64,000 nucleotides of DNA from Sporopachydermia quercuum (Eukaryota), in contig BCGN01000004.1 of assembly GCA_001599295.1 (NCBI GenBank), forward strand, positions 438,138-502,137, written 5' to 3'. A program made the translations under genes and the position numbers. The notes beneath the pieces were generated by a model. It did not search any database, was not told the DNA's origin, and saw only the letters and a list, made by a program, of their open reading frames with translations. Positions 19,055-61,984 of this stretch are shown here, piece by piece. The first letter of the stretch is position 1. Each line of letters opens with the position of its first letter.

Positions 19055-20323
19055 CCGTGCCAAATTTAAAGATAGAATAGACATTGGATTGTGAGAACAT
19101 GCAAAAAGCTATACATATCTATGTATAACACACACCCTTGGGACAACCATAGTATAGGAGAATTTTGGAGTCGCCTTGCTCTTTACATATGAATGAGTAT
19201 AATCTCAGGATGAAAGCATTGCACGACAAGAACATTTTGACTTTGTCAATGAGTCTTTCGACTCTTGGCTTCCAACTGATTGATGGTAAGATAGTTAAAA
19301 TGATATTAATCTAACGTTCTGATAAGAAATCATCATCGAATTCTCGCCAAAGCGTACGTAGGACATGATGGCACATTCTAAGCTGTTGCTGTTAATTTAT
19401 ATCAAATGATTAAATATGAATCCCTATTACATATTTTAGAATTTATTGGTACCATGACTATTTCATTCCATGGGATAGACAGTTCTGCACGTACAAGAGG
19501 CCAAGCCCATTATTTTTCTATTTATTAGTTGTAAACTTAATACCATAGTTATAATTAGGATCATCTACTTATCGTAATACTAACCGTGTTATTTTATTTT
19601 ATTCACTATAAAAGATAATATTGATAATAAATAATATACATCAAGAGTATGTTTAATTAATTTCATTATAGATATGTTAATCCTCCATGATATAGTACGC
19701 CCAGCGTGCTAGTTTTATCTTATGACCACCATGATACTATTAACGTATCAATCCAATACAATACTACTAATAACTATCAATCAGAACATTTCTATACAAT
19801 TTACATCCGGTATGATCTGGATTATAATCTATTAATTATATTAAAATATTTGTCATGAATCCTTGCTTATCATTGATTATCATTGAATTANNTATTATCA
19901 AACTCCTGCATTTTGTAAGGAAGTCAAATCTTCTCAAGTTATGCACTCGCATGAATCGTAATGAACTAGTGTGTAATTTCAGTTGTACTTTCAAGTTTAA
20001 TCCAAACCTTAACCTTAGTTCGTTCCATATTCCATTGTTCTACTGTTCCCCGCCTGCAGAATAAATCACTGGTACATTTATTACACTTGTGCACCACCAA
20101 TTAAATTCTCCTATTTACAACTACACAGACAACCACACTAACACAGACATCGCAAGTACAACATGAATAAATAATTCAAACTGATTACATAGCAGCAATT
20201 TATGATTATTATTATACATAATATTCCTTGAAGTTGACTTATTTCTTTTGATAATACCGATTACTGTATAGAAAGAACCAGCATATTGGATATTTATTTA
20301 TTCACACATTTTCCTTCACCGAA

Positions 20324-25445: not shown

Positions 25446-25465
25446 TATATATATATATATATATA
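25446..25465. repeat. (TA)10 microsatellite
   Basis: Read directly. Confidence 0.9.
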
Positions 25466-25844
25466 GAATAATAAAGTGATTATTGTAGCTGGAGATAAGT
25501 ATGATCAAGGATCAGAAGTATTGGAACCCAATATACAGCTGAGATACAATGTGTGAAGGTAAAGAATGGCTGGAACACAGTGATTTGATTGTTTTCAGGG
25601 TGACTTGGCTGTAAGAAGCTTCCGATTTAGAAGTTTTAGATGATACTTGAGCCAGATTAGTCGATTTCAGATCAGAATTCAGCTCTACCTGTATCTTGCT
25701 GTTTCAGTCTCGTACTACTCCCTTATAGCCGGCCAGTATTAGTGGTACCTTAAAAGATTAGGTAATCCTTCAAATCGACTGTTGACTGGTAGTAGAAGGA
25801 TAAAGGTGTATAAATATATATACGTTAAACTGGGACTATGTAGG

Positions 25845-25874
25845 AAGAAAAGGGTAAGAAAAGGGTAAGAAAAG
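25845..25874 (+). repeat. 11-bp tandem repeat (AAGAAAAGGGT)x2.7
   Basis: Read directly. Confidence 0.75.
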
Positions 25875-26429
25875 TGGTGATTGTAGTATAGTTTCAGTTC
25901 AATTTTTGTCTTATAACCGTATTTTATTTATTTCAATTGGGCACTCATTTGTTGCTTCACTTAATGATTAATGATCTGCCTGAGATGAAATAGGAAAAGA
26001 TTAGGTAATCCAAAATAGTCAAAGGGTCATGGCAAACAATTAATGATTATAATCATGATTATGTAATCTATGATATACTCCGGTCAATAATCGACTTATC
26101 CGCTTTATTCGGCTTTTCCAGCTTTTTCCAGCTTTTTCATTGATATTGCCCAAAAAACTGACAGTTTTCTAGCATTTTCCTTGTTCTCAGCACATTGAGT
26201 TATCTTTGCTTCCGCTTTCAACCGTGATTGTTTTATTTCACCCCACTCTGCTATATGAACGTATGGATCGTAACATTTGCTTATATAATGAGATATATCC
26301 AATAACAAGTCCATTAAAATAATACACATAAGGTTAAAACTCTAATAAAAGTATCTAGTCTTTTCTTTTTCCATTTTCAGCGATTTTACCGAAAAGCCTC
26401 GGCTGAAATCAAAACCTTATCTTCTATCC

Positions 26430-38400: not shown

Positions 38401-39785
38401 CGAGCTAGGTCTCCTGACAGTGCTTCACAAAGAGCAATTGCCCGAGAAACAGGATAAATAGTGAACCGAAGTTTTTTCAGATGAGTGAAAATATCGGAAA
38501 TGGCAGTTTCTGTGGCGGAGAAAGTCGGAGCAGCCAAAAGCTCTTCAATAGGGAAATCTCGGAGAAGCTGGTTGTAGCCTTCTGCTCGAGTAATAGCCTC
38601 GGAAATTCCCGTATCGGATAAAAAGCTTATTGTTGAGTGGAACCGTTTACCCTGTTTTAGGACATCTAAAGTTAATTTGATACTTGGATCATTGAGCCGA
38701 GCTTGCAGTGTTTGTAACGCTTCTTCAAGGGCAATCCAGAAATGGATTTCGGAAGCTGCGGAGTCATCGTCGGCATTGCTGCGATCAAGCCGAGATATTT
38801 GCCGAGCCGATTTGACCCAGATGTTAACGGATGTTTGAAGGTTATTAAGAAACACCGGATCGGATATAAGATCATCCGCTACGGAGGAAACCGGAATAGA
38901 GATATCCGAAGATACAAATTGAGTTTGGGATTGAGACTGTGATTGAGCCTGTGCTTGTGTTTGTGTTAGTGCTAGACGGGAGTTTTCGGCATAGTAAGAT
39001 TCTACGACAGATCTAATAGTAGGATTCACATGCGACAGTAGGTCTGGAACCGATATTCTCCGTTCTAACGATTGTAGAGCCAACGCTAATTCCGTGATTT
39101 TCCTTCGAGCTGCTTTTGTCCCCGAATTTGTTTCTTCTGTTGATTCCGATCCCGTCGTTGTTCCCGTTCCAGTTCCAGCGCCGGCGCTAGTTTGCTTCAC
39201 CGAAGCTTCTTCCGATAATATATCAAAATAAGGACCTAAGCCGAAATTCACCATGGACTTCAATAAATCATACGGGGAATAAGATAGATCGGATGTTTGT
39301 AGATTACTCGGAATGTTGAAAATCTGCATCTGCGTTTCTAATGGTTCATCCGAATAAATCGGTGCGGAGCCTTTGATTATAGCTAACGCTATTTTGAACA
39401 GGTGAGGCAAATTATGCTGAACGCTATAGTGGAGCTCGGCTCTCTCTTCCGGCTTTTTGCTTTCCGTCTCCTCCTCTTTATGTTTTATTATGTACAATAC
39501 CGATGCTGTGGTCTCTTTAGCGAACACTGAACAAAAATCCACATTTTCTAACCATTTGGTGTCACCAGTAGGATCGGAAGAATGAGTAACAAATCCACAT
39601 TTAACTAAATCGCCATTTTGAGCTTCAAGGAACACTTTGGTCCACATGACGATCGTTTTAAGTAAATCGGAACCAGATATAATGTTTCGGCTGTTTCCAG
39701 TATTCTCGGGATCGGAATTGGATTCCTCCAGCCGGTTTTCATCCCTTGGCAATTTTCGCGCCGTTAGCGGTTGCTCAATATCCAT
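26430..39785 (-). CDS. DYN1: Cytoplasmic dynein heavy chain (4451 aa, no introns seen)
   Basis: Walker A motifs GPAGTGKT (AAA1), GPSGSGKT (AAA2), GPPGSGKT (AAA3) and GESHTGKT (AAA4); CFDEFNRL, HYDFGLRAVKSVL, FPRFYFVGNEDLLEILG, LIVFCDEINLP; stalk/MTBD ELRSMANPP...VNRASKACGPL. Confidence 0.98.
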   Translation of the reverse strand: MDIEQPLTARKLPRDENRLEESNSDPENTGNSRNIISGSDLLKTIVMWTKVFLEAQNGDLVKCGFVTHSSDPTGDTKWLENVDFCSVFAKETTASVLYIIKHKEEETESKKPEERAELHYSVQHNLPHLFKIALAIIKGSAPIYSDEPLETQMQIFNIPSNLQTSDLSYSPYDLLKSMVNFGLGPYFDILSEEASVKQTSAGAGTGTGTTTGSESTEETNSGTKAARRKITELALALQSLERRISVPDLLSHVNPTIRSVVESYYAENSRLALTQTQAQAQSQSQSQTQFVSSDISIPVSSVADDLISDPVFLNNLQTSVNIWVKSARQISRLDRSNADDDSAASEIHFWIALEEALQTLQARLNDPSIKLTLDVLKQGKRFHSTISFLSDTGISEAITRAEGYNQLLRDFPIEELLAAPTFSATETAISDIFTHLKKLRFTIYPVSRAIALCEALSGDLARKLSELLAQSGISHLGYSEYSQTVAQVQPVFRTWDKCAKEFTNMAREILRKRAEKFIFVRIRARHSELQDRLEYFSDFRKRHQQLLDTLIAAQQQVHQAHQVTIHAPEVPDLVVQLQEAYSLVEPVDILDLSQEGLRKWSTAEAQYKSRVAQVEISVIATLRSALGKARNADEMFRVFSRFRTLLARPAIRGAVAEYQTVLLANVKQDIKVLHGQLDFPEKTLIMGQLHGIPAAAAQIGWLQQLDSRLDGIVTRLELILGTNWPNYAEGKTLNNEITNLKAALRPESRFQEWQSKHSGKYFPLSSPILAIRKSSDKKFRIHPNFDSIYINLVSEARNLAWLGFQVPHNIISTSRTVAKLLPTYLGLSDGFRVLWQALKACDELSIGKILLDPVMQTVLSLLKEVASLSWDSIIGGVSTSRSIVGGEITGTETEATEAELVLKLLSLMFTLHEHFQYVDSEVLRINSALQAIGDVNTELVVVKEKISELTEEILSLSRIGIKAEAVVQFTLELNLKLASQLSSRXITQLSNWCEELWAKKDNSTAXDSVISTEIVISENSVNLVPSIQSIRVKLIREVQNIVQTVTQLQKLRIPGNFTSGINKAENFSQLETNLSPSITKCYMEIDKICHDLTSCFQEWKQFQTLWDLNFETLFEELGTNVSKWLSVVAELRKARLRLDTLELGQRIGRIRISYEQIAGRVALKYDSLQAAIVAQFGTIVSEVARKFCSEIKPALKSISYRTIDASRVFETAETVAEVFRIESQLPTWENEAQLLRKSYSVLSRNRYRFNSEWIYPEHTDSLVQNVKGEILGKKQTISEKLGLITQKFNSETQTLSEKVGDLHVQWNSDKPINADLTSAQALEVLVFFKSEADSLAAKIRLLSSVATQLTLSIPAIPSLSDILDEISELQAVWEELDGISTRLSDLKAEVFTLIPIRDIRTKLENIQAELRNVSNSVRQYSAYGNLSESVKILLKTLPILTLLRTEALKQRHWNLIFKPQTPPPAQILTLNSVWQLDLLRHKNRISEIVAQAQGELILQESIAKMTNKWEETRFETIPNPSGLVPLVRGWDELFSACRDDLAELEAMRSSPYFHIIATEAREWTERLEKVAQLLDVWVDVQKQWVYLDRVLGSNSEVSRLQPRETTRFRTISSEWMAQQRNLLKAGNVIAAAEVLGIQEAAERARDALNRVQRALAEYLEKARAEFPRFYFVGNEDLLEILGTGNRTLGTEKHLGKLYPGISRVEEVEKGKVISVISPEGERIALKDVIDISQYANVAEWLGKLGETLSATIESEIGNALDKLYGIRQSETNWDWQNFLEWINSYPYQALLVALQIFWTQETENWLKMETGVAENGKAGAIDNVTQQFEDILKFLAEISHKKVKITENDTENEEYRSATNILNRKIETLVGEAVHQLGILRELRDSGDLSSHSLNSPNSYSYSWLKYQRFYYDASFPSCKRITISQLGHSIPYGLEYLGIPERLVYTKLTSDIFQAMVSALQLNMGGSPFGPAGTGKTETIKMLGQNLGRLVLVFNCDESFDFQAVGRILIGILRLGAFCCFDEFNRLNGKVLSAVSGHIEAIEFGLSENLAETDIKLMGQTFKSNRYSGIFITTNPGYAGRSELPENLKKLFRSFSVKSPDKETIAEVVLTGLGFLTGLKLSKIIVPFFGALEARLSEQKHYDFGLRAVKSVLGYCXSLRKEFLTGNGNGDSDIESSNAAEYVPQLELELVAKSIDDTIAPKLTEADLAVFNQLTEEYFPKQEILTETTSQFEQTLLQLCQTEHLIPAPQFTWKAIQLSRIHKLYTGLVLVGPSGSGKTAIGSLTLKSLAETLNLDPVIIRLDAKIIGKEHLFGKLDSTTREWTDGIISSLVRRVRENVRREAQQLIWVLFDGDIDPDWAESLNSVLDDNKTLTLANGERLPIPANIKFVFETDSLSYATPATVSRCGMIFIGNGTVTEDMRVAQYWKRLETEELEFQDGTEARKEVVTFFIEEAQQIITGDFLNRVLRYSIENLSHIMDTNRINNRYIDSFFAFVTKFLKNFVKFYSTKPNFVAQQASKLYSGRATLLALIWAYSGDCDFSNRRKLAAFLLAQSELEQFFPSEAELAELAIFQPSEGTEMATNTATATANSILDFELTPSGSFKSWSRNIPKLNLNSASLADPSIVIPTLDTARHEDLLFGMISEHKPVVLCGPPGSGKTMTLMNAIRKEPGLELLSLNFCKETNAESLIKVLEQKCRYRKTPNGEFKLHPENPGVWLIVFCDEINLPQTDKFGTQHVISFIRQCVAQQRFWSPRHKSWVWLNHIQFVAACNPPSDIGRIPLAPRFLRHTSIIFVDYPETPSLRQIYQTFNEAVLRSEPDLRGFVXNVTEAMLGIYTRCKTEFSAVVQPHYIYSPRELTRWVRGLDRVLSQLGSFEPNGDLGSTLSVNINFLVRILTHEARRLFSDRLITSSEKLECGSIIFSVLQREFPGVPIPKSSDELLFSDYMSGVYSEVSSEALRDFISQRLAVFSEEEVQTNLVLFPEFLDHILRVDRVLRQRQGHVILMGESHTGKTTVARFVAWLNGLSLRELPHYSGFGLTQFDQFLRTVLFQAGVSGTRVCLLIDESGISESAFLERMNTLLANSEIPGLYLGEEYSALITACRESALSRGLLIDSEEELYRWFTEQISENLHVILTLSGEGNNKPNAKANGNENAEPGNSTETSAINSSIASSPALLNRCVVNYTGTWSLAALRIVAKELVSSVALQSPKQESEADFRTFIEDAIVTIHQRNQHLNADLGGAYSGTISATPGEFLAFLATFTTELTSAESQARETQNHLHTGLRKIRDTTAKVNFLRRHLATQETELSLKAQEAQQTLTHMISEQNEAERKQEASHEIRKLLEKQEADLSVRQQEVLSELSRAEPAVKAAEAGVLNIKKQHLTELRSMANPPEAVKLTLEAVVTLLGFKPNSWREIIGIIRAEDFIPNIVYFNCEKQLTLAIRAEMVRNFLPRKEFQIETVNRASKACGPLCAWVRAQVTYSEALQQVGPLRAEVDDLERVARDNQAKLKAVEEMITELEDSIRSYRDNYSRVIAESERIKGEISSIQDKVNRSESLINSLKAETDRWAETLKEADNNTETLAGDCILKAAFKVYAGSADEPGRKKMEKMWRQELKLRSIPIRSITLNVDQMLASGDIAEWRKHGISVSTIAVENYYIMAEPPKYPLIVDPSGAASEFLTLRHNLISPDKPLTLSSFQDPNLLKHVENALRFGGTLILNHAEILDAVISPILAKEYRYVGGRRLVRLGAREIDVSDQFQLYLITNDQYAKWPQFITSRATIITFSVSPGSLASEASDRALAEFFPEVETQKRTVFVKLSEYSARLTKTEKDLLQQLNISEGNLLEEDKVAETLAELKSEAERVTEKKTEAESLIESLKAVSDKFRDFGVIVGKIFRVLQRIESLNGWYKFSIKWIKVVLDKVMVQAREQGLNGKSREDSESLARLFIVETFKQATSAVLHHHRSVLAGCLILSFGSAQSGTYIRDLVHESLNKMSEGSFGKDWLVNADVRFKQVESGDNNEDKDISEIMQTIFFDLAKPEIEVLEILWHLSVIYNNSGNNPEIVNGVSEMLYKKLSILTQSPIDELEHYPLPILVESYLNSETPLVLCSQQGFDASSAIETLAEAKGKRLEIAALGTSETLITAETGLKNAARNGTWLLVQNVHMWPSWLDNLTKLGSTVNSEFRLFLTSDLGFKEMPSTILQNCRVYMFENARGIKASMKELVLSTGLIRSEISREFNSQTGNNGPIEKKFICFLIAWFHSLVTERLNYVPLAWKTEYEFNDSDVYCSTRLITRLIDETAGKKAHLTPEAIPWDYIANLIGSILYGGKITDGEDLRFIRDLSDQIFRSEAFGAEFNLVENKFTSSLTQHVIPPESKHSFDDYNTWIYNLPDHEPITWLGLPENAENEILRLQDRKTIEFIAEVLPRDDENEDEDEEQQGNEEASLEE

Positions 39786-41194
39786 TATGAATCAGTTGTA
39801 AGATATTGGTTTTGGATCTGGATTTGGATTTGGACCTTGTGATAAATTATGTCACTCTTATCAGGAATAATCAGATTAATGATACAATACTGAAATGACG
39901 ATAAGAAGCAGTTGGTACTAACTGTGGTACCAATTGATCGTAATAATAATAGTAGTCACACTAGGAATACTAGCAATACTATTGATGGTACGTTTGTAAT
40001 GGCGATGATTTGGTGTTAGTGTCAACAAATGAACTCACAAATACGTCAATTGCTGATTGATGACGGAAAATGGTGTTTGCGTGACTAGCTGTTCTCGCAC
40101 CTATTTGACTCACTGACGGGTGGTTTTTTTAGTATCTGCTGATAGTTTTATTGTCACACTTTCATCGGCAGATGTGTGGTAATAGTATTCGGGGTAATAG
40201 TATTTGATTGAAGAATGGGGATTCTGTATACTGAAGGGCATTGAAGGATGGGAATTTTCTCGTGTTCGCGTGGGATTATAATTTTGTACCCTAATTGGGA
40301 AACTATGCAGGAAGTTCGCATAAGATTTCGGAGTTTGATGATGCTGACGGAAATGAAGTAGAAATAAAAGTTAAACCAAAGCAAATTATACATATTATAG
40401 GATTAAAGGGGCGAGAGACCCACTAATTATTTTGATATATCTTTATGAGCTTTATAATACTTCTCATATGTAAAAAATAGTATGCATAGAATGAGATGAG
40501 GAAAACAGTTAAAGTTCGAAAGTTTTCTTAAAAATCTGAACTTTATTTCTATCGATAAGCAATGGTTTAATATATCTAGCTTGATTTAAATCTAAAGTAG
40601 TATCTTTATGTTATTTTAAAGTAATTTATGGTTTACTATGATGATTTACCATAAAATTATTACTTTTCTACAATTGAATACGAAATATCTCATCTATATA
40701 CTCATCGAGGATGATTTCATAAGAAAGTTCGCTCTTATTGCTGCAAAAATCTGTAAGTACATGTATGAATAGCATATGTAAAATCCAGTGAAGGGAGACA
40801 TAATGTACAGGCAACAAGATAAGATATTACCATTGAATTTAAGCAAATTGTAAATTAGAGGTGTATCCTTTTTAACAAGTATNATCGAGTACGAAGAAGG
40901 TTTTCTGGGCAAATTAGAGAAAAATTTGGCAATAATTCATTGTCAATTCCGTTTCATCGCATTACATAATCACGAAAGTGGGCTCTCACGTATAGCTTCC
41001 GACTACTACAACTTCTAATATACTTCCTTTACTGATACTAGTACAAACCCTCAAGAACTTCCAGCCAGATTCAATTAAATTGGTTTCTTCCAAAGCATCA
41101 AAATCAAGATGGCATTTATTTCGACATATTCACATGCAATTGCCATACATTCAGTTACATTTTGTGGTCACCGATGAGCGGATTCTTCATCCAA

Positions 41195-45169: not shown

Positions 45170-47341
45170 TTAATCAAGGTCATCAATATGGACATCATGA
45201 TTAGAGCTATCATTTCCGTTATCTGATTCGTTATTTCTAACGTTTATTTCATTATTTGTCCCGTTAGTTCCACTATTTCCATTGTTTCCGTTATTGTTTC
45301 TGCTACTTCCANTGTTTGTTCCGTTACTATGACCAAGTACTTGCGTAATGAAATTAGCTACTTGTGCTCCGAAAAATCCAATATTTCCACCTCTCTGTCC
45401 GTTTCCGTTTCCATTATTATTTACATTATTATTTCCACTATTTCTTGTTCCTGTTGCTGTTCCATTATTTCCGTTTGGCGTTTCAACTTGAGTACCCCCG
45501 CCTAAAGGGACAAATGATCCGTCTTCATTAACCGACATAACAATGGACTGCTGTGGGCTAATGAATTCATCAAGAATCGTATCAAATATTGTTCCGAACA
45601 CATTATTCTGTGTATCTGATCTCGGATTAAGAATATCAGCTGCCGAGAAAGAAGCCGAAGCTGCTTCGGAACCAGTTCCAGAAGCAGAATTTGCCGAGGC
45701 TTCATGTCTTTCTGCAGCACTCCTGAGTCGCTCCCGGATGAAATCAGTATATGCGTCATTATCGGAATTATTAGGAACAGAGACATCGGGATCTGATTCG
45801 GATGAGGTATTAGCATTTGTAGTTGTATTTGCATCAGGAGACGTGGAAGTAGAGTTTGAATTTGAGTTCGATTCTGTGGACAAATCGGAGTTTATCCCCG
45901 AATTGGGATTGGGTTCATTGCTACTGTTTGGTATATTGCTATTCCACGTTCGGGTATTATTGTTCAATGCAGAAAGATGGAAAGGTCTAATCCCGGGAAA
46001 TAACGGTAGTTGAGCATTTGCTTCGATATTTGTATTAGAATTCGTACTAGNTATTCCGGTATTTTCCGTATTATTCCGAGTCAAGTTGGACCGAGCTCGG
46101 GTAATAAATGCACTATTCCCTCTTCTAACGGTTCTAATGTTTCCTCCGAAATTGTTTCCAAACANGTTTCCAAGAGGATTTCCGTTCACACTGACATTTT
46201 CTCCGTTATTTCTTCGTTCTATCAATCTTCGGATATCTTCTGACGTCTTCTTCATTTTCTCTAGATCGGTATCCGTGAAACTCTCATACGGAAGAATGAT
46301 CTCTTCCTCGCAGTCCTCGGCATGTGGTTGAGAAGCCGTTGATTGTTCCGATTTGGCTTTCGATTCTCCTTCCGAATCTTCCCGACCAATTGTCCGTTTC
46401 TTTTTCCCGTTATAAAATTCATCCCGGAGATTTCTTTTTTCAAAATATTTTTCCGCCACTCGGATTCCACGGTCGTAAGCTTCTACAGCTTCAGTTAACT
46501 TTCCCGCTCGAAATCGGGCAAACCCGGTTCTGGCCCAAGCACAAACGTAATATTGTTTTATTCGCGAACGTTTTATTCCGTTAGTTTCCGAAGTGTCATC
46601 ACTCGCTTTATCAACACTGGTTGATCTACTACTAGTACTGGTACGAGAAGTTCCGTCTTCCCCATTATTTTCTCCTGAATCATTTACACCGATAACTTTC
46701 ACTGGGCGGACTTTTTCTACTAACTCAATAGCTGTTAATGCATCATCTTCGGCGGCTTCGAAATCACCAATACCTAAAAAAGCTGCCGATCGGTTTGAAT
46801 ATAAAACGGGATTAGCGGGCGTCATTCCTATACCTCTTGAATAATGAGCGATAGCTTGACCGAACTTTTGCTGTTCCATTGCTTGGTTACCCTTCTTTCG
46901 GAACGATCCCGCGCTTGAAATCGTAGAAGGTGTTCCGTTCCGAAAAGCGTCAAGAAGGATTGTGCCGAGATACTCTAACTTTTCGGCAGATGCGGAGTCT
47001 GAAGCAGTTTCCGCAGAAACTATACCAGAGTGATCACCGAAAACATGCGCAAGCAAATCTCGAGCTATNGCAATCTTCCGATCGTTTCCGAAGCTAAGAA
47101 TGCCACTTCTTGGAGTCGATGCATTACTATTGCTATTGCTATTGTTACTGGTACCGCTTGTACTTGCAATCTCATCAATAACTGTGCTTCCCACTCCGGT
47201 GGAACAATCGGAATCCAGAGTCATATTATCGACCAAAGAGGTCAAATATAAAATAATAGCTTGCTCTACATCAGTATGGGCGCCGGCACCCGTTCCGAGA
47301 TTCGATCCCGAGATTGCGCTTGTGTTCCGTAGTGATGCCAT
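45170..47341 (-). CDS. Divergent Sgt2/SGTA-like TPR co-chaperone with an Asn/Gly/Ser-rich C-terminal half
   Basis: First ATG at 47341. Three TPRs (FRKKGNQAM...AIAHYSRGI, NPVLYSNRSAAF...AEDDA, AWARTGFARF...EAVEAYDRGI); N-terminal AIILYLTSLV...IARDLLAHVF resembles the Sgt2 dimerization helices. Confidence 0.65.
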   Translation of the reverse strand: MASLRNTSAISGSNLGTGAGAHTDVEQAIILYLTSLVDNMTLDSDCSTGVGSTVIDEIASTSGTSNNSNSNSNASTPRSGILSFGNDRKIXIARDLLAHVFGDHSGIVSAETASDSASAEKLEYLGTILLDAFRNGTPSTISSAGSFRKKGNQAMEQQKFGQAIAHYSRGIGMTPANPVLYSNRSAAFLGIGDFEAAEDDALTAIELVEKVRPVKVIGVNDSGENNGEDGTSRTSTSSRSTSVDKASDDTSETNGIKRSRIKQYYVCAWARTGFARFRAGKLTEAVEAYDRGIRVAEKYFEKRNLRDEFYNGKKKRTIGREDSEGESKAKSEQSTASQPHAEDCEEEIILPYESFTDTDLEKMKKTSEDIRRLIERRNNGENVSVNGNPLGNXFGNNFGGNIRTVRRGNSAFITRARSNLTRNNTENTGIXSTNSNTNIEANAQLPLFPGIRPFHLSALNNNTRTWNSNIPNSSNEPNPNSGINSDLSTESNSNSNSTSTSPDANTTTNANTSSESDPDVSVPNNSDNDAYTDFIRERLRSAAERHEASANSASGTGSEAASASFSAADILNPRSDTQNNVFGTIFDTILDEFISPQQSIVMSVNEDGSFVPLGGGTQVETPNGNNGTATGTRNSGNNNVNNNGNGNGQRGGNIGFFGAQVANFITQVLGHSNGTNXGSSRNNNGNNGNSGTNGTNNEINVRNNESDNGNDSSNHDVHIDDLD

Positions 47342-48032
47342 GATTATACCACGGATGTTATTGATGGCTGACAAATCTGGCAAAATCTGCCGATTCAGTA
47401 AATATAATTACCCAGATTAAGTAATTCTTCACCTGAATTGGCTAATATATGGCTATTTTGGGCTATGAAATAAGCATTCTGGCTGACATCCCGATGTTAT
47501 CGGCAAATCAAATTGTACAGAAATACAAAGAGAAAAGAGAATTTTTCTTTTGGNCAAGTTTTGTGGTTGAGGAAAGGGTGTCTTAAAATGGGTAGGATTC
47601 TTAAAAATAATGTGTCCGGGAAAGATTGCCGAATAAGGGACGGAGTGGAGATGAGGATAGCGCACTGAAAATACTGTTGATTGTGATGGGAGATGTTGAG
47701 ATCCTCTGTTTCTTTGGAAAGATAATTGCTTGTAGTCAATTGTTTATGTTTGATGAATTTTTTGAGCCATGAAGATTATTATACCATTGGAACTGACTAC
47801 TCAGGTGGTAAAGCAAAGTAGGTATGGCATGCGGTATACGTGAGTAGGAAATTGTCCAGACAGAACCTCTGCATTCACTCTATTTGATTACCATGTAATT
47901 CTACTCATTTGTTGAACTAACACATAAACAACAGTGCTTGCATTAATCACCCTCATATATTATGATTCCTGTTTATTCTTCTTTTAAATCAGCCTGTAAA
48001 TATCAGGAAAATCGCACGCTTAATTCTACAGA

Positions 48033-48132: not shown

Positions 48133-48296
48133 CGTTTACTATGGAGCAAAAATTTTGAATCAAGTGTCGGAAGGAAATCTCGGGTGCTTGATCAAATCTC
48201 GGTAATATGAACCTTCAGAAGGCTTAGAGAACACAAAATCCCGATATTGAGTTTTTGGCACGTCTGCTGACAATTGGAAGCCTCAACCTACCGAAA

Positions 48297-53685: not shown

Positions 53686-56343
53686 ATGTTTGAGTTTTCT
53701 ACTCTCCGGCCAGATGAAGTTTCTGGGAAAGACGGCGGTGGGAAATTGAGAATCTCGGAATGGGATTATGCAGGAATATATCAGTCATTGCTTACATTTG
53801 ATTCAAGCTTGAACATCCTTATTGACGTTGGATGGGATTCTGCTTTATCTTTACCATTAACGCATTTAGAATCAAAAGCAGAATCTATTCATTTGATCCT
53901 TTTAACACATCCAACTATTAGACATATTGGTGGTTATGCTATACTATGTAAACGATGTCCTCAATTTGCTCAAATTCCCGTATATGCAACAACTCCTGTA
54001 GTAAGTCTTGGAAAGCTCGCTGTTATAGATGCCTATCGATCCTTTGGCTTATTAGGTCCGATTCCCAATGTTGAGTTAACTATTGCCGATATTGAGAGTT
54101 ATTTCGGGAAAATCTCACCTTTGAAATATTCACAACCAACCACTTTATCAGGACAATTCCCTGATTTGACTATCACAGCATATAATGCAGGTCATTCACT
54201 TGGTGGAGCAGTTTGGCAACTACAGAAGAATCAAGAAAACGTTGTTTATGCTGTAGATTGGAATCATACCGGTGATTCATTTCTAGCTGGTAGCAGCCTA
54301 CTAGGTCCTAATGGTACAGTTCCTAGTCAATTGGCAAGGCCATCAGCATTCATAACTTCCCTAAATACAAGTATTGGTGGTAAAAATAAGGAAAAACAGT
54401 TTATTTCTGCAATTCTAACTGCAATTGCAAGAGGTGGTAATGTTTTACTTCCTACGTCTCCTGGGGGGAGATTATTAGAACTGGTTCACGTAATCAATAA
54501 TTTCTGGATAAGCAAAGGGTTGACAATTCCCGTGTTTGTGGTAACTAATGTTACCCGCAAAGCATTGTCCTTTGCGTCGGCAATGCTCGAATGGATGGCT
54601 CCGGGAATTATTCGAGAATGGGAAGAGCGAGATGTTTCTCCATTTGAACTCGGATCTTATTTCTATTTATGTACAAGTTTAGATGAGATTCGAACTCGAT
54701 ATGGTAGTATTACCGGGCCGAGGGTTCTTATTGCTTCCGACGAGACATTAGAATCGGCCTTCTCTCGGAACCTATTTGCTGGATTATGCGGAGATGAGAA
54801 AAGCCTAGTGTTGCTAACGGAAAGAAATTCGGGTAAAACTTTAGCTCGCAAGCTATATGAAATTTGGCAATCAAATTCTAGTTCCGGCACAGGTGAAAAA
54901 GAAGTAGCAGTGAAACTTAATTTGGAGCTAGCGTTTGAGGAAGATTTAGAAGGCATAGAGTTGCAAAACTTTTCCCGGGAAGTCTCGGAACGGAAGAAGC
55001 AACGGGAATTAGAACAAGTGCTTGAATTACGGAGTAAATCCATTTTAGATCAAAATCAAGATGAAGAGTCGTCTTCAGATGAAGATGACGATGGATTGAT
55101 TCCAGCTTCGGTTACTGGTTCCGCGGGATTAGGTATCCGAGGTGCGGAGCGAGGACTGTTACTATACGGAGATAATGTATACGATGTTCAGGTCAAAACT
55201 CTCCAAACCGGAAAAAATAATGCAAATGCAATGTTTCCATTTCTACAAAAATCAAGAAGAGCGGATGATTACGGAGAACCAGTCCGAATAGAAGATTATA
55301 AACGAACCGAAGAATCGGATGCTATACATGTTCGAACGGGTAAACCCGGAGGCCGTCAAGAGTTCCGAAAAGGACCTGATGGGAAGTTCCGGAACGGGAA
55401 TGATCATAACGATAATGGTGATTTCGATTCCGACAACGAGAATAATAATATTAATGGCTCTACAGCAATCGGAAAGAAACAAAAATGGTCCGATATACCA
55501 AATTCTGAACACGATATTGATGAAATGGCTTTATTAGATCCATTAACTGGGTCAAAACCAAGGAAAGTTTCCAGGCAAAATGTTGACTTAACGTGTATAT
55601 GCCGAGTGGATTTTGTGGATATGGAAGGTCTAGTTGATAAACGGTCATTACAAATGATTATTCCGCAAATAAATCCGAGAAAAATAATAATTATTGATGC
55701 TGATTACGTAACCAATGCTACTCGAACATCGGAAGGAACCGGAATTGAGAATAAAGAAAAAACAGAAGCTTTGGCGTTGATTGAATCCATAAAATCCAGC
55801 TGTGGAGCATCCGAGTTAACTGTGATAAATAAAGGTAATGAGTCTGTCGATGCAAGTGTTAATATTAGTTCGTTTTCAGTGACTGTTGATTACAATTTGA
55901 TGAAATCAGTTGAATGGCAAACTGTATCAGGAGGTGCGTCAATTGCCCATGTTACTGGGGAAGTTGTATTCCGGAAGAAACCGGAATCTGAGATGGAACT
56001 AGATTCGGAGACTATGGATATTAGGGCTGACGAAAACGGAAACAACACTGAAAATGGAAATAGCACTGAGATCGTTCTAGAACCGGTGAAGCCTTCTGAC
56101 TCGCTATTGACAGCTTTTAAATCACAATCTCTTGTGGTTGGTGATGTTCGGCTTAATGAAGTAAGATCTCGGTTGATTTCTCTCGGACATAAAGCCGATT
56201 ATAAGGCCGAAGGTGTTTTGGTGTGTGATGATATTGTAGCTATTCGAAAGGTGAATGAGGGTAATATTGTTATTGATGGGGGTGCTGATTCTGAGTTCTA
56301 TAAAGTACGACAAACTGTTGGAGAGCTATTAGCTTATTTATAG
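53686..56343 (+). CDS. CFT2: Cleavage and polyadenylation specificity factor subunit 2 (CPSF100/Cft2/Ydh1)
   Basis: ILIDVGW, degenerate MBL motif LTHPTIRHIGG, LKYSQ, AYNAGHSLGGAVW, VVYAVDWNH, SAMLEWM, MFPF...DDYGE, FVDMEGLVD.RS, GDVRL, EGVLVCD. Confidence 0.95.
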   Translation: MFEFSTLRPDEVSGKDGGGKLRISEWDYAGIYQSLLTFDSSLNILIDVGWDSALSLPLTHLESKAESIHLILLTHPTIRHIGGYAILCKRCPQFAQIPVYATTPVVSLGKLAVIDAYRSFGLLGPIPNVELTIADIESYFGKISPLKYSQPTTLSGQFPDLTITAYNAGHSLGGAVWQLQKNQENVVYAVDWNHTGDSFLAGSSLLGPNGTVPSQLARPSAFITSLNTSIGGKNKEKQFISAILTAIARGGNVLLPTSPGGRLLELVHVINNFWISKGLTIPVFVVTNVTRKALSFASAMLEWMAPGIIREWEERDVSPFELGSYFYLCTSLDEIRTRYGSITGPRVLIASDETLESAFSRNLFAGLCGDEKSLVLLTERNSGKTLARKLYEIWQSNSSSGTGEKEVAVKLNLELAFEEDLEGIELQNFSREVSERKKQRELEQVLELRSKSILDQNQDEESSSDEDDDGLIPASVTGSAGLGIRGAERGLLLYGDNVYDVQVKTLQTGKNNANAMFPFLQKSRRADDYGEPVRIEDYKRTEESDAIHVRTGKPGGRQEFRKGPDGKFRNGNDHNDNGDFDSDNENNNINGSTAIGKKQKWSDIPNSEHDIDEMALLDPLTGSKPRKVSRQNVDLTCICRVDFVDMEGLVDKRSLQMIIPQINPRKIIIIDADYVTNATRTSEGTGIENKEKTEALALIESIKSSCGASELTVINKGNESVDASVNISSFSVTVDYNLMKSVEWQTVSGGASIAHVTGEVVFRKKPESEMELDSETMDIRADENGNNTENGNSTEIVLEPVKPSDSLLTAFKSQSLVVGDVRLNEVRSRLISLGHKADYKAEGVLVCDDIVAIRKVNEGNIVIDGGADSEFYKVRQTVGELLAYL

Positions 56344-56561
56344 TCTTATTTGTATATAATAATTGTATGGTTAAGATTCAAATGATTATGTCCTTCTTCC
56401 GAGGTTTTGGGTTCGGACTGGTTCCTAATAGTTCCGAATATATTCGAAACGTATGCAGTAATATGTTATTGTATGCTATGTAAGTGTTCATGCTATGGAA
56501 TTAATGATTGGAAGTTTTCCGAATATTCCGGACATCTCAATTCGGAATTGTGCTTTCAGGT

Positions 56562-58385
56562 TTATGACCTAATCTGATTACTTTTGGACAGCCGAGATTT
56601 CGAACCTTGTTTATTGACTCCCTTAGTATTTCCGACTTTCTCCGGAACATCCGTCACCAGCGAAGGTTTAGAATGCCCGTGAGGTTCCGGAACGTTGGTA
56701 TTTGTGCTTGAAGTCTCGGAATTACTTTCTATTGAAGATGGAGGCAACGGAACACGAGAAATACCCTTCGGAACATAAATTGACCATCGGGAGTCTCTCA
56801 CGGGCAACAACGAGCCAGTTCGGATAGTTTCCCATAACCATTCAACGGAAACTACAGGAATTGACCATGCTACAGCATAGTGGACTTTTTTCGCGTTCCG
56901 TGATGACGCAATCAATAAATCACAATCTTTAGTGAAAACTGTCCTATAAGCACAAGATACTAGAACTGTTTGGAGTAATCTTTCTAAATGAAGTAATTCT
57001 ATTCCATGGAATCCCGACATCCCAATTTTCACTTTGTGTAGTCCGGGGATCAGTCGGTTATCAATAAACTTGCCCCATATATCTAAAGATATCTTTTTAT
57101 AATGTAAAGAGCGTTCAATGAACCATTCTGTAACTATTTCGCAATATTGGGGAAAAGATGTCGGAACGGAATCAAGGTCAATTACTGAATTAAGAACATA
57201 ATAATTAATCGGTGCCCCATTATCGGAGCTAATAACGGAACCACCATGAGATGTAATTACCGCTTTAAGCGTTGCTATTTGCTTTTCCGAGAATCCAAAT
57301 AAGTAGAAAACTTTATCTACGAATATCCCCTGTTGGGAATTAGGCTCAGATGTTGATTTGAAGCTTCTTGTATTAGGTTCAATTAAAACAAGTTGTGTTT
57401 TGGTTGCTTCTCCGATGGTGTTAGAGCGTTTAGACAGTGTTTCTTGGTTATGTCGATTTATTCCATCGAGTTCAGTTTCGATTCCGGTTTTGTCCGACCA
57501 TCGGTTTACCTCGTTTGAGCTGCTATTCAGGTTCTTCCCGGATTTCCCCACAGATTGCATGATATTATTCCAGGTTTCAGATGTTTTAGACATATCTCTG
57601 ACTCTTTTTATTCGTTCCGCAGGTAATTGACCCGGAGTCTCTCCATAATCGGCATCTAATTTCCTTTTTGAAACATCTGAGTTTTTTCCTTTCTCCTCGT
57701 TAAGCTCTGCTAACTGTTCTCGGTAAATCTTCAACTGTTTCCAACATTTACATGCTTTTAGTCCGATTTGTTCAGATGGTAATGATAATATATCATAATA
57801 TTCTTCACCTAAAGTTACATCCCGCTCCACAGATTGCAAAACCCAATCAGGGTGTACAATTGGGATTTTCTGTTGAGCTGCAAATTTCATCCGTTCTGAA
57901 GATCCGCTCCGATCATCAGTAACTAATTCTGTTGTTTCAGATGATATCCTCCTTTCAACTTCTCCTCCGTGTTCTTCAATGAGCTTTCCGAGATTGGAAA
58001 CAGACACGTCATCGGCATTAATTCTCCCGAAAACGACCACAAGTCCTTCAAAGACCCGTAATTTCCCGTATTCTTCCATATCTCGGAATAAATCAACTGT
58101 GTCACCTTGAATCCATCGGTTATGAAACTCATAAAGGAAAGACGGCCGGAGAAAGTTCATATCGTAACGATAACGAACGCTATAATTGTACTTTGGTGTA
58201 TGTCTTTCCCCAACAATGAGAAACTTAATTTCCTGGGTCAAATCGCGATAAAACTCTCCGCCCATTGACTTAATTTTCTTTGCTAATACTTCCATGATTT
58301 CCGTTGGAATGGATGTACAGCAGAATTTATGTCCAAGCAAAGGCTTGTTGGCTCTGTCGATGGCAGAATCGGATTCCTCATTCAT
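56562..58385 (-). CDS. DPB11: Dpb11/Cut5/TopBP1 BRCT-repeat replication/checkpoint scaffold
   Basis: First ATG at 58385. Four BRCT repeats: KPLLGHKFCCTSI...MGG...DLT..LIVG...TPKY, HGG...IVHPDWV, GIF...F...GF...HGG...VTEWFIERS, SGFHGIELLHL...W.IPVVS.EWLW. Confidence 0.85.
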   Translation of the reverse strand: MNEESDSAIDRANKPLLGHKFCCTSIPTEIMEVLAKKIKSMGGEFYRDLTQEIKFLIVGERHTPKYNYSVRYRYDMNFLRPSFLYEFHNRWIQGDTVDLFRDMEEYGKLRVFEGLVVVFGRINADDVSVSNLGKLIEEHGGEVERRISSETTELVTDDRSGSSERMKFAAQQKIPIVHPDWVLQSVERDVTLGEEYYDILSLPSEQIGLKACKCWKQLKIYREQLAELNEEKGKNSDVSKRKLDADYGETPGQLPAERIKRVRDMSKTSETWNNIMQSVGKSGKNLNSSSNEVNRWSDKTGIETELDGINRHNQETLSKRSNTIGEATKTQLVLIEPNTRSFKSTSEPNSQQGIFVDKVFYLFGFSEKQIATLKAVITSHGGSVISSDNGAPINYYVLNSVIDLDSVPTSFPQYCEIVTEWFIERSLHYKKISLDIWGKFIDNRLIPGLHKVKIGMSGFHGIELLHLERLLQTVLVSCAYRTVFTKDCDLLIASSRNAKKVHYAVAWSIPVVSVEWLWETIRTGSLLPVRDSRWSIYVPKGISRVPLPPSSIESNSETSSTNTNVPEPHGHSKPSLVTDVPEKVGNTKGVNKQGSKSRLSKSNQIRS

Positions 58386-58475
58386 TCTGAGTAATATTAT
58401 GATGTTAGAATAAAGTTCGGAACATTGGATCGGGTGCAATATCGGGATCTAATATTCCGCTCGGATGGTAATGGA

Positions 58476-58595
58476 GCGCGTCGAGAAGTTTCGTGTTCGT
58501 TAGTATGTGATATCTACGTAGGTATGTTAACACGAATCACAAATTAGTTTACATCCGCGAGCTCATTTCGTGTTTTAACTTGTGAGAATTTCGTG
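58476..58595 (-). promoter_or_regulatory. G1/S element cluster upstream of DPB11: three CACGAAA (SCB) boxes and one ACGCGC (MCB-like) site
   Basis: TTTCGTG on + at 58489-58495, 58566-58572 and 58589-58595; GCGCGT at 58476-58481. Confidence 0.65.
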
Positions 58596-59212
58596 CAAAT
58601 TTATCAAAATTTCCGATGGTATCGGAAGCAGAGGATAACGGAAGTAAAAGTGGAAGTCGTTCAATAATATGATTCATTGAGGCCGTGATGAATATATGAT
58701 TATATAATATTATATTATCATGATAACATACATAACATGATCATGGTTATGTAATCCTTTTGATTCTTCGTTATGGGGCTCGAGTCTAGGGGGCATCCAT
58801 AAGATTTTCCTATATCATCTTCTCCGGATGATTGGGTTTATAATTATCATTGCCGAAATTTTAACACAAATTCATCAATCGAAGTCTCAGCAAAATCACC
58901 ATCGCATCAATATCAACAATAATCTAATAATGGATCAAGAATCAACGTTGACTTCTCTGTTATATTTTNTNCATATCTAAGAGAAAAATTCTATATAAGG
59001 AAGCTATTGGGGGCCTTAGGGAATTTCTGAAGATTTGAATCACAGATCGTCAAGGTGATAGCCCTAAAAGCTGGAAACGAAAACTAGTCAGGCCGATTGT
59101 AATATATTGTGTTATTCATCAATTTGCTTATTTTACCACATTATCACAACAAGGAATCTAGGGGAATTATTTGAAAATCGAATCATTTATACCTTGAATT
59201 TTTTTTATAGAG

Positions 59213-60466
59213 ATGAAATCTATCAGACAGGAGTATATTTCCAAGGTGAAGTATACTAATGCTTTGCCAGCACCAGTGAATGCCCCTAAACTAGTGAAAG
59301 TACCAATAGATCAAAATGCATTAATTGGTACAAATTTACTTTCATCCATGTTACCAAATCAAGGGTTCCGCAATTTGCTTGAACTTGATAACGAAATTGC
59401 AATGCCTTTGAATCTTCTCAATGATCGAACGATATTTCATTACTATTCTAACGTTGATGATAATACAGGAATTGATCCTCTATCACTTAACTCACCAGCG
59501 TTGGAAGATATCGCATTACATCCAAAAGATAAGGAGTTGCTTTATTTCCCTGGAACTACTAACAGGGCAAGCAAATCATTAGAATCTGTTTCATTTTTAC
59601 GACGAACAGAATATATCTCAGATGTTCGTAATGTAGCAGAACCAGGGTCTGTATCACCAAGTAAACCCAAAGCACCAAAAACTGATATTGAGGAGATGGA
59701 TCCTTATGCGAGACTACAAGCCGTTATCAACACTTTTGAAGAGTCAAATATTGAAGATATATCGAAACTGGTTCATCCAGTGAAGAAGTTGAGTGCTACT
59801 GCTGTTTATCCTATTCTACCGGATGCCAAGATGATGGATTTAACATATTTGTCGATGAAACTTGTACCTAATGCAAACCAATCGGGTAAGGAAGAAAGAT
59901 CGGCCGCTCTGGATCAAGCAGTATTTAGACCAGTTGCTTTAGATACAGACGAATGGATATCTTTATATAAAACTGATGAGAAGAGTGCTGAAACATTAAA
60001 GAGGAAAGCATCTGAATTAGAAGAAGCGCCAATAGAAAATGAAGCAGACGAAACGTATAAATATAGACATATTAAGGATTATGATATGAAATTTACCCAA
60101 CATAATGATCCTTGTGAAGAGATAGCTATCAGTTTTGAAAGCAAAACTGATAAACACGGTAATTCCAATCCAGTTGCCTACTATATTCCTATTAACGGAA
60201 AGATTGAGTTGAAAAGAAGAAGAGTTCATAAACAATTGCTATTATTAGCTCAGCAGCATGATGTTGATGTTATCCAATTAACTCGTCGTGATCCTACTAC
60301 TGAAGAAGTTATTGCAAGAGATAATGCTAGAAGTGCTTATGATCCTGTGAATTTCACTGAGATTCAAGAGATGGAGGAAAAGGATGAAGAAGACGACAAT
60401 GAATTTGAAAATGATAATACGGAGAATGACGATGAGGAAAAGGAGAATGATGAAGATGATGACTAA
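59213..60466 (+). CDS. PAF1: RNA polymerase II-associated factor Paf1
   Basis: RQEYI.KVKY.N.LP.P..PKL, LHPKD..LL, VSFLRRTEYIS, HPVKK, YPILPD, AYYIPI..KIELKRRR, acidic tail. Confidence 0.95.
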   Translation: MKSIRQEYISKVKYTNALPAPVNAPKLVKVPIDQNALIGTNLLSSMLPNQGFRNLLELDNEIAMPLNLLNDRTIFHYYSNVDDNTGIDPLSLNSPALEDIALHPKDKELLYFPGTTNRASKSLESVSFLRRTEYISDVRNVAEPGSVSPSKPKAPKTDIEEMDPYARLQAVINTFEESNIEDISKLVHPVKKLSATAVYPILPDAKMMDLTYLSMKLVPNANQSGKEERSAALDQAVFRPVALDTDEWISLYKTDEKSAETLKRKASELEEAPIENEADETYKYRHIKDYDMKFTQHNDPCEEIAISFESKTDKHGNSNPVAYYIPINGKIELKRRRVHKQLLLLAQQHDVDVIQLTRRDPTTEEVIARDNARSAYDPVNFTEIQEMEEKDEEDDNEFENDNTENDDEEKENDEDDD

Positions 60467-61267: not shown

Positions 61268-61984
61268 TTAGATGAGAAGGGCAACGGCACCAGCAATAAA
61301 AGCACCAGCAGCGCCGATAGTTGCTTTCTCAGCACCACCAGTGTAGGTAGGAACATCAGCAGTAGTAGGGGCAGCTTCGGTAGAGCTTGGGGCTTCAGTG
61401 GTTTCAGGAGCTTCGGAAGATGATTCTTCAGCAGGAGCTTCAGAGGTTTCTTCAGCGGGGGCTTCGGTGGATTCTTCAGCTGGTGCTTCAGATGATTCTT
61501 CAGCAGGAGCTTCGGAAGATGATTCTTCGACAGGGGCTTCTGAAGATGTTTCTTCGGCAGGGGCTTCGGTGGTTTCTTCGGCAGGAGCTTCAGAAGATGA
61601 TTCTTCAGCGGGGGCTTCGGAAGATGATTCTTCAGCAGAATCCTCAGTAGCAACTTCATCTTTACAGGTAGTACCAGTAGGATCAGAAGGCAAGTCGCAA
61701 AGAGCAAGAGCGTCTGTCAAATGTGGGAAATAACTGTCGTACAAGCACCAACCGCAGTCTAAACATCCAGGAATCAAACTCATGAATTGAGAGTCGTCAG
61801 CACATAAACAGTCGCTGTCACCAGCACAGTTTCTGGCAGCAATGATAGCATAACCACAGTCAGAATGGCATTGATAACTAGCACTTTGAGGGTTAGCCAT
61901 AGCATCAGCAAAAGGAAGAGGAGCTGGGTTGGCGTTGGCCTTTAAGGCAGCCAAGACTGAAGCGAGAAGGACAGTAGAAAGCAT
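61268..61984 (-). CDS. GPI-anchored cell-wall protein with a Cys-rich N-terminal domain and Glu/Ser/Pro/Ala repeats (possibly Ihd1/Pga36-like)
   Basis: Signal peptide, CHSDCG...C...CLC...CLDCGWCL..C domain, EAPAEESSS repeats, PTYTGGA omega region and hydrophobic C-terminus GAAGAFIAGAVALLI. Confidence 0.8.
   Translation of the reverse strand: MLSTVLLASVLAALKANANPAPLPFADAMANPQSASYQCHSDCGYAIIAARNCAGDSDCLCADDSQFMSLIPGCLDCGWCLYDSYFPHLTDALALCDLPSDPTGTTCKDEVATEDSAEESSSEAPAEESSSEAPAEETTEAPAEETSSEAPVEESSSEAPAEESSEAPAEESTEAPAEETSEAPAEESSSEAPETTEAPSSTEAAPTTADVPTYTGGAEKATIGAAGAFIAGAVALLI
61390..61640 (-). repeat. Coding tandem repeat, about 9 units of 24-27 bp encoding (EAPAEE(S/T)(S/T)S)
   Basis: Repeated gcttc(g/a)g...ttcttc(a/g)gc units on the + strand; boundaries approximate. 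Confidence 0.85.

Follow-up and report, generated by a model that had tools for sequence, protein, structure and literature searches.

Gene-linked domains of CCG/CGG words in a 64-kb stretch of Sporopachydermia quercuum DNA: a possible carpet of CGG half-sites

Results

A word-rich domain across CFT2 and DPB11, and two more in the window

We analyzed a stretch of 64,000 nucleotides of Sporopachydermia quercuum (assembly GCA_001599295.1, contig BCGN01000004.1, positions 438,138 to 502,137 of the forward strand), referred to here as the window, which has a guanine-plus-cytosine (GC) content of 37%. In its right-hand part the open reading frame (ORF) of CFT2 (CPSF100) at 53686-56343 (plus strand, 885 amino acids; Pfam Lactamase_B_6, Beta-Casp and CPSF100_C) converges with that of the BRCT-repeat protein DPB11 at 56562-58385 (minus strand, 607 amino acids; ORF and Pfam), and the two are separated by a non-coding gap at 56344-56561 with 34% GC. 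The PAF1 ORF follows at 59213-60466 (plus strand; Pfam Paf1). The feature under study, which we term D3, is a domain rich in CCG and CGG that begins within CFT2, crosses the gap and the whole of DPB11, includes the non-coding DNA upstream of DPB11 at 58386-58640, as seen from the word counts, and ends before PAF1, which is in the background state. An earlier note on this DNA had described a CCGA/TCGG-rich domain at 54590-58860; the domain is real, with limits refined to 54529-58640, and the gene names given in that note are upheld by Pfam (CPSF100/CFT2, BRCT/DPB11, Paf1).

Domains were called by a two-state Poisson hidden Markov model and by likelihood change-points, the support intervals of which were 50-250 bp wide. 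Three two-state domains were found: D1 at 26498-39733 (13.2 kb), which coincides with a dynein heavy-chain ORF (26430-39785, minus strand, 4451 amino acids); D2 at 45215-47642 (2.4 kb), which covers a TPR-repeat ORF (45170-47341, minus strand, 723 amino acids) and about 300 bp upstream of it; and D3 at 54529-58640 (4.1 kb), with change-point support (2-lnL, in log-likelihood) of 54479-54577 for its left edge and 58624-58879 for its right edge. The earlier note had reported a single regional domain starting in CFT2, so its account of D3 stands but was incomplete, as D1 and D2 were missed. In 1-kb intervals, the three blocks showed an observed/expected ratio (obs/exp) of CpG of 1.0-1.5 and 25-50 CCG/CGG per kb, compared with 0.3-0.9 and 2-16 per kb elsewhere. 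The density was similar across domains (36.9 CCG/CGG per kb in D1, 40.4 in D2 and 34.3 in D3, the flanks of D3 having 9.0 and 7.7), and the profile is a flat plateau with step edges rather than a peak. All three domains cluster at 26.5-58.6 kb, the left 26 kb of the window being without any.

The enrichment of D3 does not depend on local composition. In 54590-58860 we counted 83 CCGA+TCGG+CCGG against 43.4 +/- 5.3 in 200 dinucleotide-preserving shuffles, which keep local GC and CpG fixed, 143 CCG+CGG against 87.9 +/- 7.6, and 39 TCCGA+TCGGA against 12.8 +/- 3.2; each of these counts was reached in 0/200 shuffles, and for D3 as delimited by the change-points, too, 0/200 matched the CCG+CGG count. 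The enrichment, which the earlier note was ready to give up had it disappeared on local GC/CpG correction, persists after it.

One word with defined flanks is enriched

The ratios of domain to background were 2.5 for CG, 4.2 for CCG/CGG, 5.7 for TCCG/CGGA, 5.6 for CCGA/TCGG and 7.7 for TCCGA/TCGGA, and the extended words TTCCGAA/TTCGGAA occurred 41 times inside the domains and 5 times in a background 2.2x larger, an 18-fold difference after scaling. Relative to local base composition, obs/exp was 3.30 inside and 0.89 outside for CCGA/TCGG, 1.99 and 0.96 for CCGG, and 1.31 and 0.67 for ACGG. CpG tetramers of types other than CCG/CGG were not raised (inside/outside TCGA 0.77/0.77, ACGA 0.59/0.64, GCGA 0.50/0.55, ACGT 0.45/0.58), and the signal is therefore not a CpG effect; the same likeness of the two compartments lends no support to a modification-target landscape, which the earlier note had offered among its explanations, or to a CpG landscape, as these are commonly understood. 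Masking of CCG/CGG removed 10.3% of the domain bases and 2.4% of the background bases. The C/G share then differed merely 1.05-fold, with CGC/GCG at 2.5-fold as the main residue, and so the signal is not a GC effect either.

The count of CCG is above the dinucleotide expectation (z=12.3) and that of CCGA above the trinucleotide expectation (z=8.4); the even palindromes CCGG and TCGA are under their expectations. The flanks of CCG prefer T at -1 (0.49), T at -2 (0.47) and A at +1 (0.48). TCNGA as a whole is 2.7-fold up inside the domains, and its TCWGA precursors are not specially depleted (ratio 0.85). Several positions are thus drawn to one composite word, and this looks like recognition specificity, not like a point-mutation bias. 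Tetramers containing CTG/CAG have obs/exp of 1.18-1.54 outside and 0.83-0.96 inside; as they are relatively commoner outside, CWG/CSG exchange is part of the traffic.

Such traffic could arise without any function, by a regional bias of mutation, repair or conversion that favors C:G in the middle of CWG and in neighboring contexts, acting solely in certain chromatin, replication or transcription settings, for example in recombination-hot units or in units transcribed against the replication fork. The greater share of CTG/CAG tetramers outside the domains mirrors the gain of CCG/CGG inside and fits a neutral bias of this kind. However, the shift is not a general W-to-S shift, the convergence of several positions on one composite word, with all TCNGA rising, is not what a neutral bias predicts, and we know of no fungal enzyme of such specificity. 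We consider this explanation unlikely.

Several simpler candidates were also tried. One-step mutation of TCWGA to TCSGA was rejected, as the precursors are not depleted while total TCNGA rises. A CpG island, or an unmethylated CpG-rich domain, was rejected because just the CCG/CGG-type CpGs rise. A GC-biased gene-conversion tract or a peak of GC at third codon positions (GC3) was rejected as well, with no shift at context-free sites and two-fold codons unchanged. A repeat scan of the window returned only families of 14 to 27 nt at chance level, with no copies that align over more than the short word, and so no sign of a mobile element, a satellite or a dispersed repeat. Searches for Rfam families and for tRNAs in the window were likewise negative.

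The signal is independent of coding, frame and strand

Within the domains, the four-tetramer density is 35.2 per kb for coding DNA and reaches 35.3 per kb over the 907 bp that are non-coding; in the background it is 6.3 per kb for coding and non-coding DNA alike. The domain non-coding DNA alone has 32 matches where 5.7 are expected (Poisson P=2.5e-14). In D3 the signal passes through the convergent gap, where the six TCCGA/TCGGA/CCGG matches reported earlier were confirmed within 218 bp (56398, 56413, 56433, 56518, 56528 and 56542), and where TCCGA/TCGGA number 5 against 0.5 +/- 0.7 after shuffling (0/200); the 255 bp upstream of DPB11 hold 4, against 0.9 in shuffles (0/200). The start of CFT2 is word-poor, as had been noted, with 11 CCG/CGG in its first 843 bp (13 per kb); this part is in the background state, and the remainder of the gene is in the domain state. 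CCG and CGG show no clear strand asymmetry, their counts on the two strands being close, and CpG is up in all three codon phases. The earlier claims that strand, reading frame and codon choice do not account for the signal are thereby borne out.

Within genes the shift is visible in the codons that hold the words. CGA, CGG, CCG, TCG and GCG are enriched in domain genes: from background to domain, CGA+CGG rise from 17% to 56% of Arg codons, CCG from 7% to 28% of Pro codons and GGA from 35% to 48% of Gly codons. No such change is seen among the codons of E, K, Q, D, Y and C. Third-position tables conditioned on both neighbors shift just where CC, CG or GG arises, and synonymous sites that are unable to form CG/CC/GG do not differ between domain and background (chi2 12.0, df 19, p=0.89), which speaks against GC-biased conversion in general, another option of the earlier note. 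Shuffling of synonymous codons cuts the words in 4/4 domain genes (442 to 344, 84 to 54, 57 to 42 and 51 to 36), and no drop was seen in the two background genes tested (32 observed vs 35 shuffled, 21 observed vs 30). The word signal is a DNA-level property, independent of coding, frame and strand. A codon-usage class produced by translational selection was rejected, with the signal extending beyond coding DNA and beyond frame.

We also considered a feature of the RNA or of translation, that is, recoding with rare codons or a motif or structure of the mRNA, the 'non-coding' domain DNA then being untranslated regions. The enriched codons, above all those of Arg, are in keeping with it, and the whole 907 bp could lie in untranslated regions. 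Against it, the mRNA strand gains CCG and CGG equally, the increase affects every codon phase, and the word counts exceed the expectation from codon usage. The domain leaves out the initial 843 nt of the CFT2 mRNA, and the 10-bp spacing described below is out of frame. Nor is there an excess of structure, folding z-scores in 120-nt windows ranging from -0.09 to -0.46 in the domains and from +0.26 to -0.69 in the background. The RNA-level or translational reading is largely refuted, and we regard it as highly improbable. A neutral bias gains from the same data, since strand symmetry and independence of coding fit a process that acts on DNA; physically clustered, non-adaptive nucleotide-bias classes are known in Saccharomycotina, according to the available text of PMC9246145.

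CCG/CGG-type CpGs are paired exactly 10 bp apart

Taking the C of each CCG/CGG-type CpG as an anchor and comparing pair counts with their expectation lag by lag, we found 57 pairs at lag 10 inside the domains where 21 were expected, with 18 at lag 9 and 18 at lag 11; outside the domains there were 3 where 3 were expected. CpGs of other types have no peak at lag 10. When the pairs were sorted by orientation (CCGG entered in both classes), direct pairs numbered 46 vs 13 expected (z=8.7), inverted pairs 17 vs 7 and everted pairs 19 vs 6, so all three orientations are enriched 2.4- to 3.5-fold at one CpG spacing. The pairing exceeds that in 200 synonymous shuffles in each of the domain genes (dynein 40 vs 10.6, TPR 8 vs 1.3, CFT2 3' part 5 vs 0.9, DPB11 4 vs 0.8; 0/200 each). 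As 10 is not a multiple of 3, protein repeats cannot produce it. Alignment of the lag-10 pairs gives the composite YCGGRAAAWWYCGGAA. A few three-site chains in 10-bp steps occur, and the harmonics at lags 20-21 and 30-31 are weak. The exactness of the pairing is a further point against a neutral bias.

A spacing close to one helical turn brings to mind a rotational code of nucleosomes, in which a CG-containing positioning pattern of the CGGAAATTTCCG type sets the rotation of the nucleosome. The lag-10 composite is close to this published pattern, and a CG periodicity of ~10.4 bp is described in the available text of the study (PMC3117857), which also mentions CG periodicity in the honeybee. 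All orientations share the CpG spacing, as a rotational code would have it, and the SS and WWW autocorrelations of the domains, unlike those of the background, have a period of ~10.5 bp that lasts for about three turns. In the domains SS also has a weaker 3-bp signal, and SS power at 10.0-10.7 bp is modestly above synonymous shuffles, being reached by 6, 7, 153 and 20 of 200 in the four genes. The pattern does not, however, extend to the length of a nucleosome. A 115-bp probe (GGAAATTTCC)n with a 10.4-bp period scored 38.26 inside and 37.70 outside, and its purine/pyrimidine form scored equally in the two. We found no coherent periodicity at 60-400 bp or at 8-12.5 bp beyond the neighbor pairs, and nothing of the kind that marks strong nucleosomes, a ~10.4-bp period over at least ~100 bp matched by an RRRRRYYYYY probe. 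The weak harmonics and a peak at exactly 10, with lags 9 and 11 below the 21 expected, are likewise difficult to reconcile with it, and there is no enrichment of TCGA or TTCGAA, two pyrimidine-purine junctions that would serve as well. A nucleosome code is thus a resemblance and not an explanation, and as a cause of the domains we judge it very improbable.

Domain edges lie near gene ends

The distances between the six edges and the closest ORF end are 68, 52, 45, 301, 843 and 255 bp. Three edges are thus at most 70 bp away, and three or more were so close in 0.37% of 20,000 random placements (P=0.0037). A further two edges are found upstream of minus-strand genes, 255 and 301 bp ahead of the start codon. 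By eye, the words of D1 run from ~26389 to ~39775 and so track the dynein coding sequence from ~40 bp beyond its stop codon to ~10 bp before its ATG. The wholly covered genes are on the minus strand in 3/3 cases, and the plus-strand genes between domains are in the background state, except for the 3' two-thirds of CFT2, which faces DPB11. CFT2 changes state at about amino acids 265-297, within a block of invariant residues that is the most conserved of the gene. The domains are linked to gene units, and their edges are tied to gene ends. A flat plateau with step edges, where a peak would be looked for, also counts against a neutral bias.

Patchwork ancestry is the leading alternative explanation of the domains. 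D1-D3 might be introgressed, hybrid-derived or technically patched DNA from a sister lineage with a genome rich in CGG/CCG throughout; the donor would have had the same AT bias and codon preferences, and recombination or conversion would have left three patches within 32 kb. The data match this in several ways: the sequence is in one of just two states and changes between them in steps, D1, D2 and D3 are alike in intensity and k-mer profile, coding and non-coding DNA are equally affected, the patches are clustered with none in the 26 kb to their left, and the sole intragenic edge is in that block of CFT2 which is most conserved and would allow diverged copies to recombine. Introgression is known to leave regional differences in composition in yeasts, as the available text of PMC9246145 has it for Lachancea kluyveri chromosome C. 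On the other hand, recombination would not choose places such as the ORF ends at which 3/6 edges fall, with D1 equal to the dynein coding sequence within tens of bases; two more edges fall in non-coding DNA, and context-free codon usage is indistinguishable (p=0.89). Both parts of CFT2 rank the same nearest relatives first, and dynein and CFT2 share Trichomonascus as best named relative (44% and 41%), so there is no sampled donor. The best relatives of CFT2 are 37-41% identical (Trichomonascus, Sugiyamaella, Blastobotrys, Geotrichum and Lipomyces among them), the best named match of the dynein motor region is Trichomonascus at 44%, and no match of either protein exceeds 52% identity. The source is by these affinities a budding-yeast-like ascomycete without near kin in the databases. 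N sites are equally frequent in D2 and its flanks, so D2 is not heterozygous for ancestry. An ancestral origin would, moreover, merely shift the unexplained CGG force to another lineage, and we regard it as doubtful. One version of it, a distant or sampled foreign donor, was excluded, with the top relatives shared by the CFT2 halves and dynein and with identical context-free sites.

The dynein motor region is 43-44% identical to budding yeasts and filamentous ascomycetes alike. Isolated Ns occur at 28 sites of the window, 27 of them with a single N and the remaining one with NN, which makes 29 letters, for example at 4781, 9406, 19891-19892, 31303, 40883, 51900, 58969 and 58971. Of these, 18/28 are within 40.8-52 kb, evenly in D2 and in the background flanks, and D3 has none; the N at 31303 is the center of a TTCNGAA word. 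Judged by their letters, the N sites look like masked ambiguity codes at heterozygous positions of a diploid.

Other features of the window

An AT-only palindromic stretch at 58686-58721 (overlapping 17-nt arms, 88-94% complementary) lies between DPB11 and PAF1, ~50 bp outside the right edge of D3. Two clusters of CGG-type words with 8 matches each occur in background promoter DNA, one at 40064-40348 between dynein and the SRO7-like gene and one at 48167-48291 directly upstream of TRM732; these could be ordinary sites of zinc-cluster factors. The dynein heavy chain has an acidic, Glu/Asp-rich tail at its end, and the TPR protein (45170-47341, minus strand) has unusually high contents of Asn (12.7%), Ser (12.4%) and Gly (9.3%). 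Other ORFs of the window encode an AMP-binding enzyme, an MFS transporter, a GATA factor, an Lgl/SRO7-like protein and TRM732. A 238-amino-acid ORF at 61268-61984 (minus strand; Ala 19.7%, Glu 13.8%, Ser 13.0%) has no Pfam match; its codon positions 1 and 2 are GC-rich, it is in the background state, and every CpG in it spans a codon boundary. Stretches of 3-5 kb without an ORF of at least 120 amino acids are found at 1942-6057, 7138-11853, 13849-17404 and 23088-26429. The first 26 kb are thus ORF-poor, a low gene density for a yeast, and may contain small or intron-containing genes.

Discussion

A possible carpet of CGG half-sites

The reading that we favor, with a probability of about 0.4, is that a putative CGG-binding protein reads the domains, which would be a carpet of CGG half-sites kept up in place. 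The word specificity, its independence of coding, frame and strand, the sharp two-state domains, the 10-bp pairing and the position of edges near gene ends are observed here, and a protein that reads the words, a bias that acts in place and the purpose of the marking are inferred. In this proposal, the three stretches would be a second 'dialect' of the same genome, with base composition and codon choice as elsewhere, that uses CCG/CGG about 4x as often, preferably as T-CCG-A/T-CGG-A (extended TTCSGAA), and pairs its CpGs 10 bp apart, as CGG-N7-CGG and as inverted and everted forms of equal CpG spacing. The words would represent half-sites of the zinc-cluster type, and a fixation bias would keep them in place along the transcription units. 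Its likeliest source would be selection for binding of a CGG-reading protein that marks the units, or else an asymmetry of repair or mutation produced by the binding itself.

Several results hint at the zinc-cluster type. The sequence properties of a Zn2Cys6 array are present as far as half-sites (4.2-fold, z=12.3) and fixed spacing (lag 10) are concerned, and the dominant pair, CGG-N7-CGG, matches the spacing of a zinc-cluster dyad; a single orientation was not found. Among the explanations listed in the earlier note, Zn2Cys6-type CGG half-sites are the one most strengthened, both by the T 5' and A 3' flanks and by the exact 10-bp pairing, and its interpretation is overall partly supported.

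A more far-reaching version, which we put forward tentatively and consider rather unlikely, is a chromatin compartment encoded in the sequence, in which selected units would be carpeted, in their coding and non-coding parts, with CGG half-sites one helical turn apart. A putative architectural protein of the zinc-cluster type would then mark these units for control of replication or recombination, for silencing or for pairing. Such a compartment would be to a eukaryote what word-based chromosome architecture is to bacteria, and it would be strong enough to rewrite the synonymous sites of a 13-kb essential-type gene.

A number of points weigh against a maintained carpet. All results are based on a single 64-kb window. 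Promoters are the usual place of zinc-cluster sites, and a spread through 13 kb of coding sequence is not normal for them; a genuine zinc-cluster factor, moreover, has one orientation. The CpG spacing shared by all orientations fits helical geometry better than it fits one factor. We are unable to name a function for a carpet of this kind. The unit that D3 would mark is not simply a gene, since the first 843 bp of CFT2 are excluded. Equal intensity and the presence of two states only are what an ancestry mosaic would lead one to expect, and the D3 edge in the most conserved block of CFT2 is a natural site for recombination of diverged copies. Finally, the Zn2Cys6 array is a candidate one, with binding predicted from the words.

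Comparison with known systems

No described system explains the domains, and we found no description of kb-scale CCG/CGG-word domains in a yeast in the open-access literature searched. For comparison we collected 58 fungal CFT2 loci from metagenomes, none of them close, and profiled the 31 that were of at least 9 kb. The maximum of CCG obs/exp over 1-kb intervals was 1.36 among these 31 loci and 2.54 in the window, and the standard deviation of the ratio was 0.11-0.27 among them compared with 0.61 in the window. The 7 nearest partial relatives were profiled, and no similar feature was seen in them.

CpG islands and gene classes with bimodal CpG obs/exp are known in vertebrates and in the honeybee. 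Like CpG islands, the domains have kb-scale CpG obs/exp of ~1.1-1.2 within a CpG-poor (0.6-0.7), AT-rich genome. Unlike in CpG islands, CpGs with A/T flanks show the same depletion in the domains as in the background, and therefore the domains are not a mere absence of CpG decay. TTCCGAA is the CCG core of the Saccharomyces cerevisiae centromere element CDEIII, which is read by the zinc-cluster protein Cep3, and we mention this as a lead only.

The nucleotide-bias classes and GC3 peaks of budding yeasts (Cope & Shah 2022, PMC9246145) are similar in that, in the available text, genes with a non-translational synonymous composition are clustered. Those classes, as presented there, differ in overall GC3, whereas here context-free GC3 is identical and CCG/CGG words alone differ; unlike the edges of those classes, moreover, the edges here are step-like and at gene ends, and non-coding DNA is enclosed. 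Introgressed blocks in yeasts, for which the available text of the same study gives Lachancea kluyveri chromosome C (PMC9246145), share the two sharp states and the inclusion of intergenic DNA. Unlike them, the domains measure 2-13 kb, are tied to gene ends, have identical context-free sites and show no phylogenetic discordance at the depth testable. With the CG nucleosome pattern CGGAAATTTCCG, to the extent that it is given in the text available (Bettecken, Frenkel & Trifonov 2011, PMC3117857), the domains share CpG steps one helical turn apart, pyrimidines before the CpG and purines after it, and a local SS/WWW oscillation of ~10.5 bp. They differ from it in having no periodicity of nucleosome length, in matching the probe no better than the background does and in being specific for CCG/CGG.

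The closest likeness in the words themselves is to Zn2Cys6 sites. For the conserved Zn2Cys6 pair AcuK/AcuM (Rds2/Ert1) the published site is CCGN7CCG, and CGG-N7-CGG/CCGN7CCG is also that of the Neurospora pair Aod2/Aod5, according to the available text of PMC12719309. Shared with sites of this kind, as given in that text, are the CGG/CCG unit, the dominant CGG-N7-CGG and the T-rich 5' and A-rich 3' flanks (PMC12719309). Unlike such sites, the putative half-sites here run at ~33 per kb through whole coding sequences and are not clustered in promoters, and one CpG spacing is the peak of their inverted and everted pairs as well.

What varies along this window comes down to a single short word, defined in its flank and in its 10-bp pairing and switched at gene ends, and the gain of this word leaves all other site classes untouched. 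Compositional heterogeneity in yeasts is usually described as variation of GC3 and ascribed to recombination or introgression. If the domains are maintained in place, a process that reads DNA shapes ~30% of the window as strongly as translational selection acts on codon bias, and analyses of codon usage or selection in this lineage would be confounded by it. If they are due to ancestry, a sister lineage with a genome-wide CGG force must exist, and such a force would be equally undescribed.

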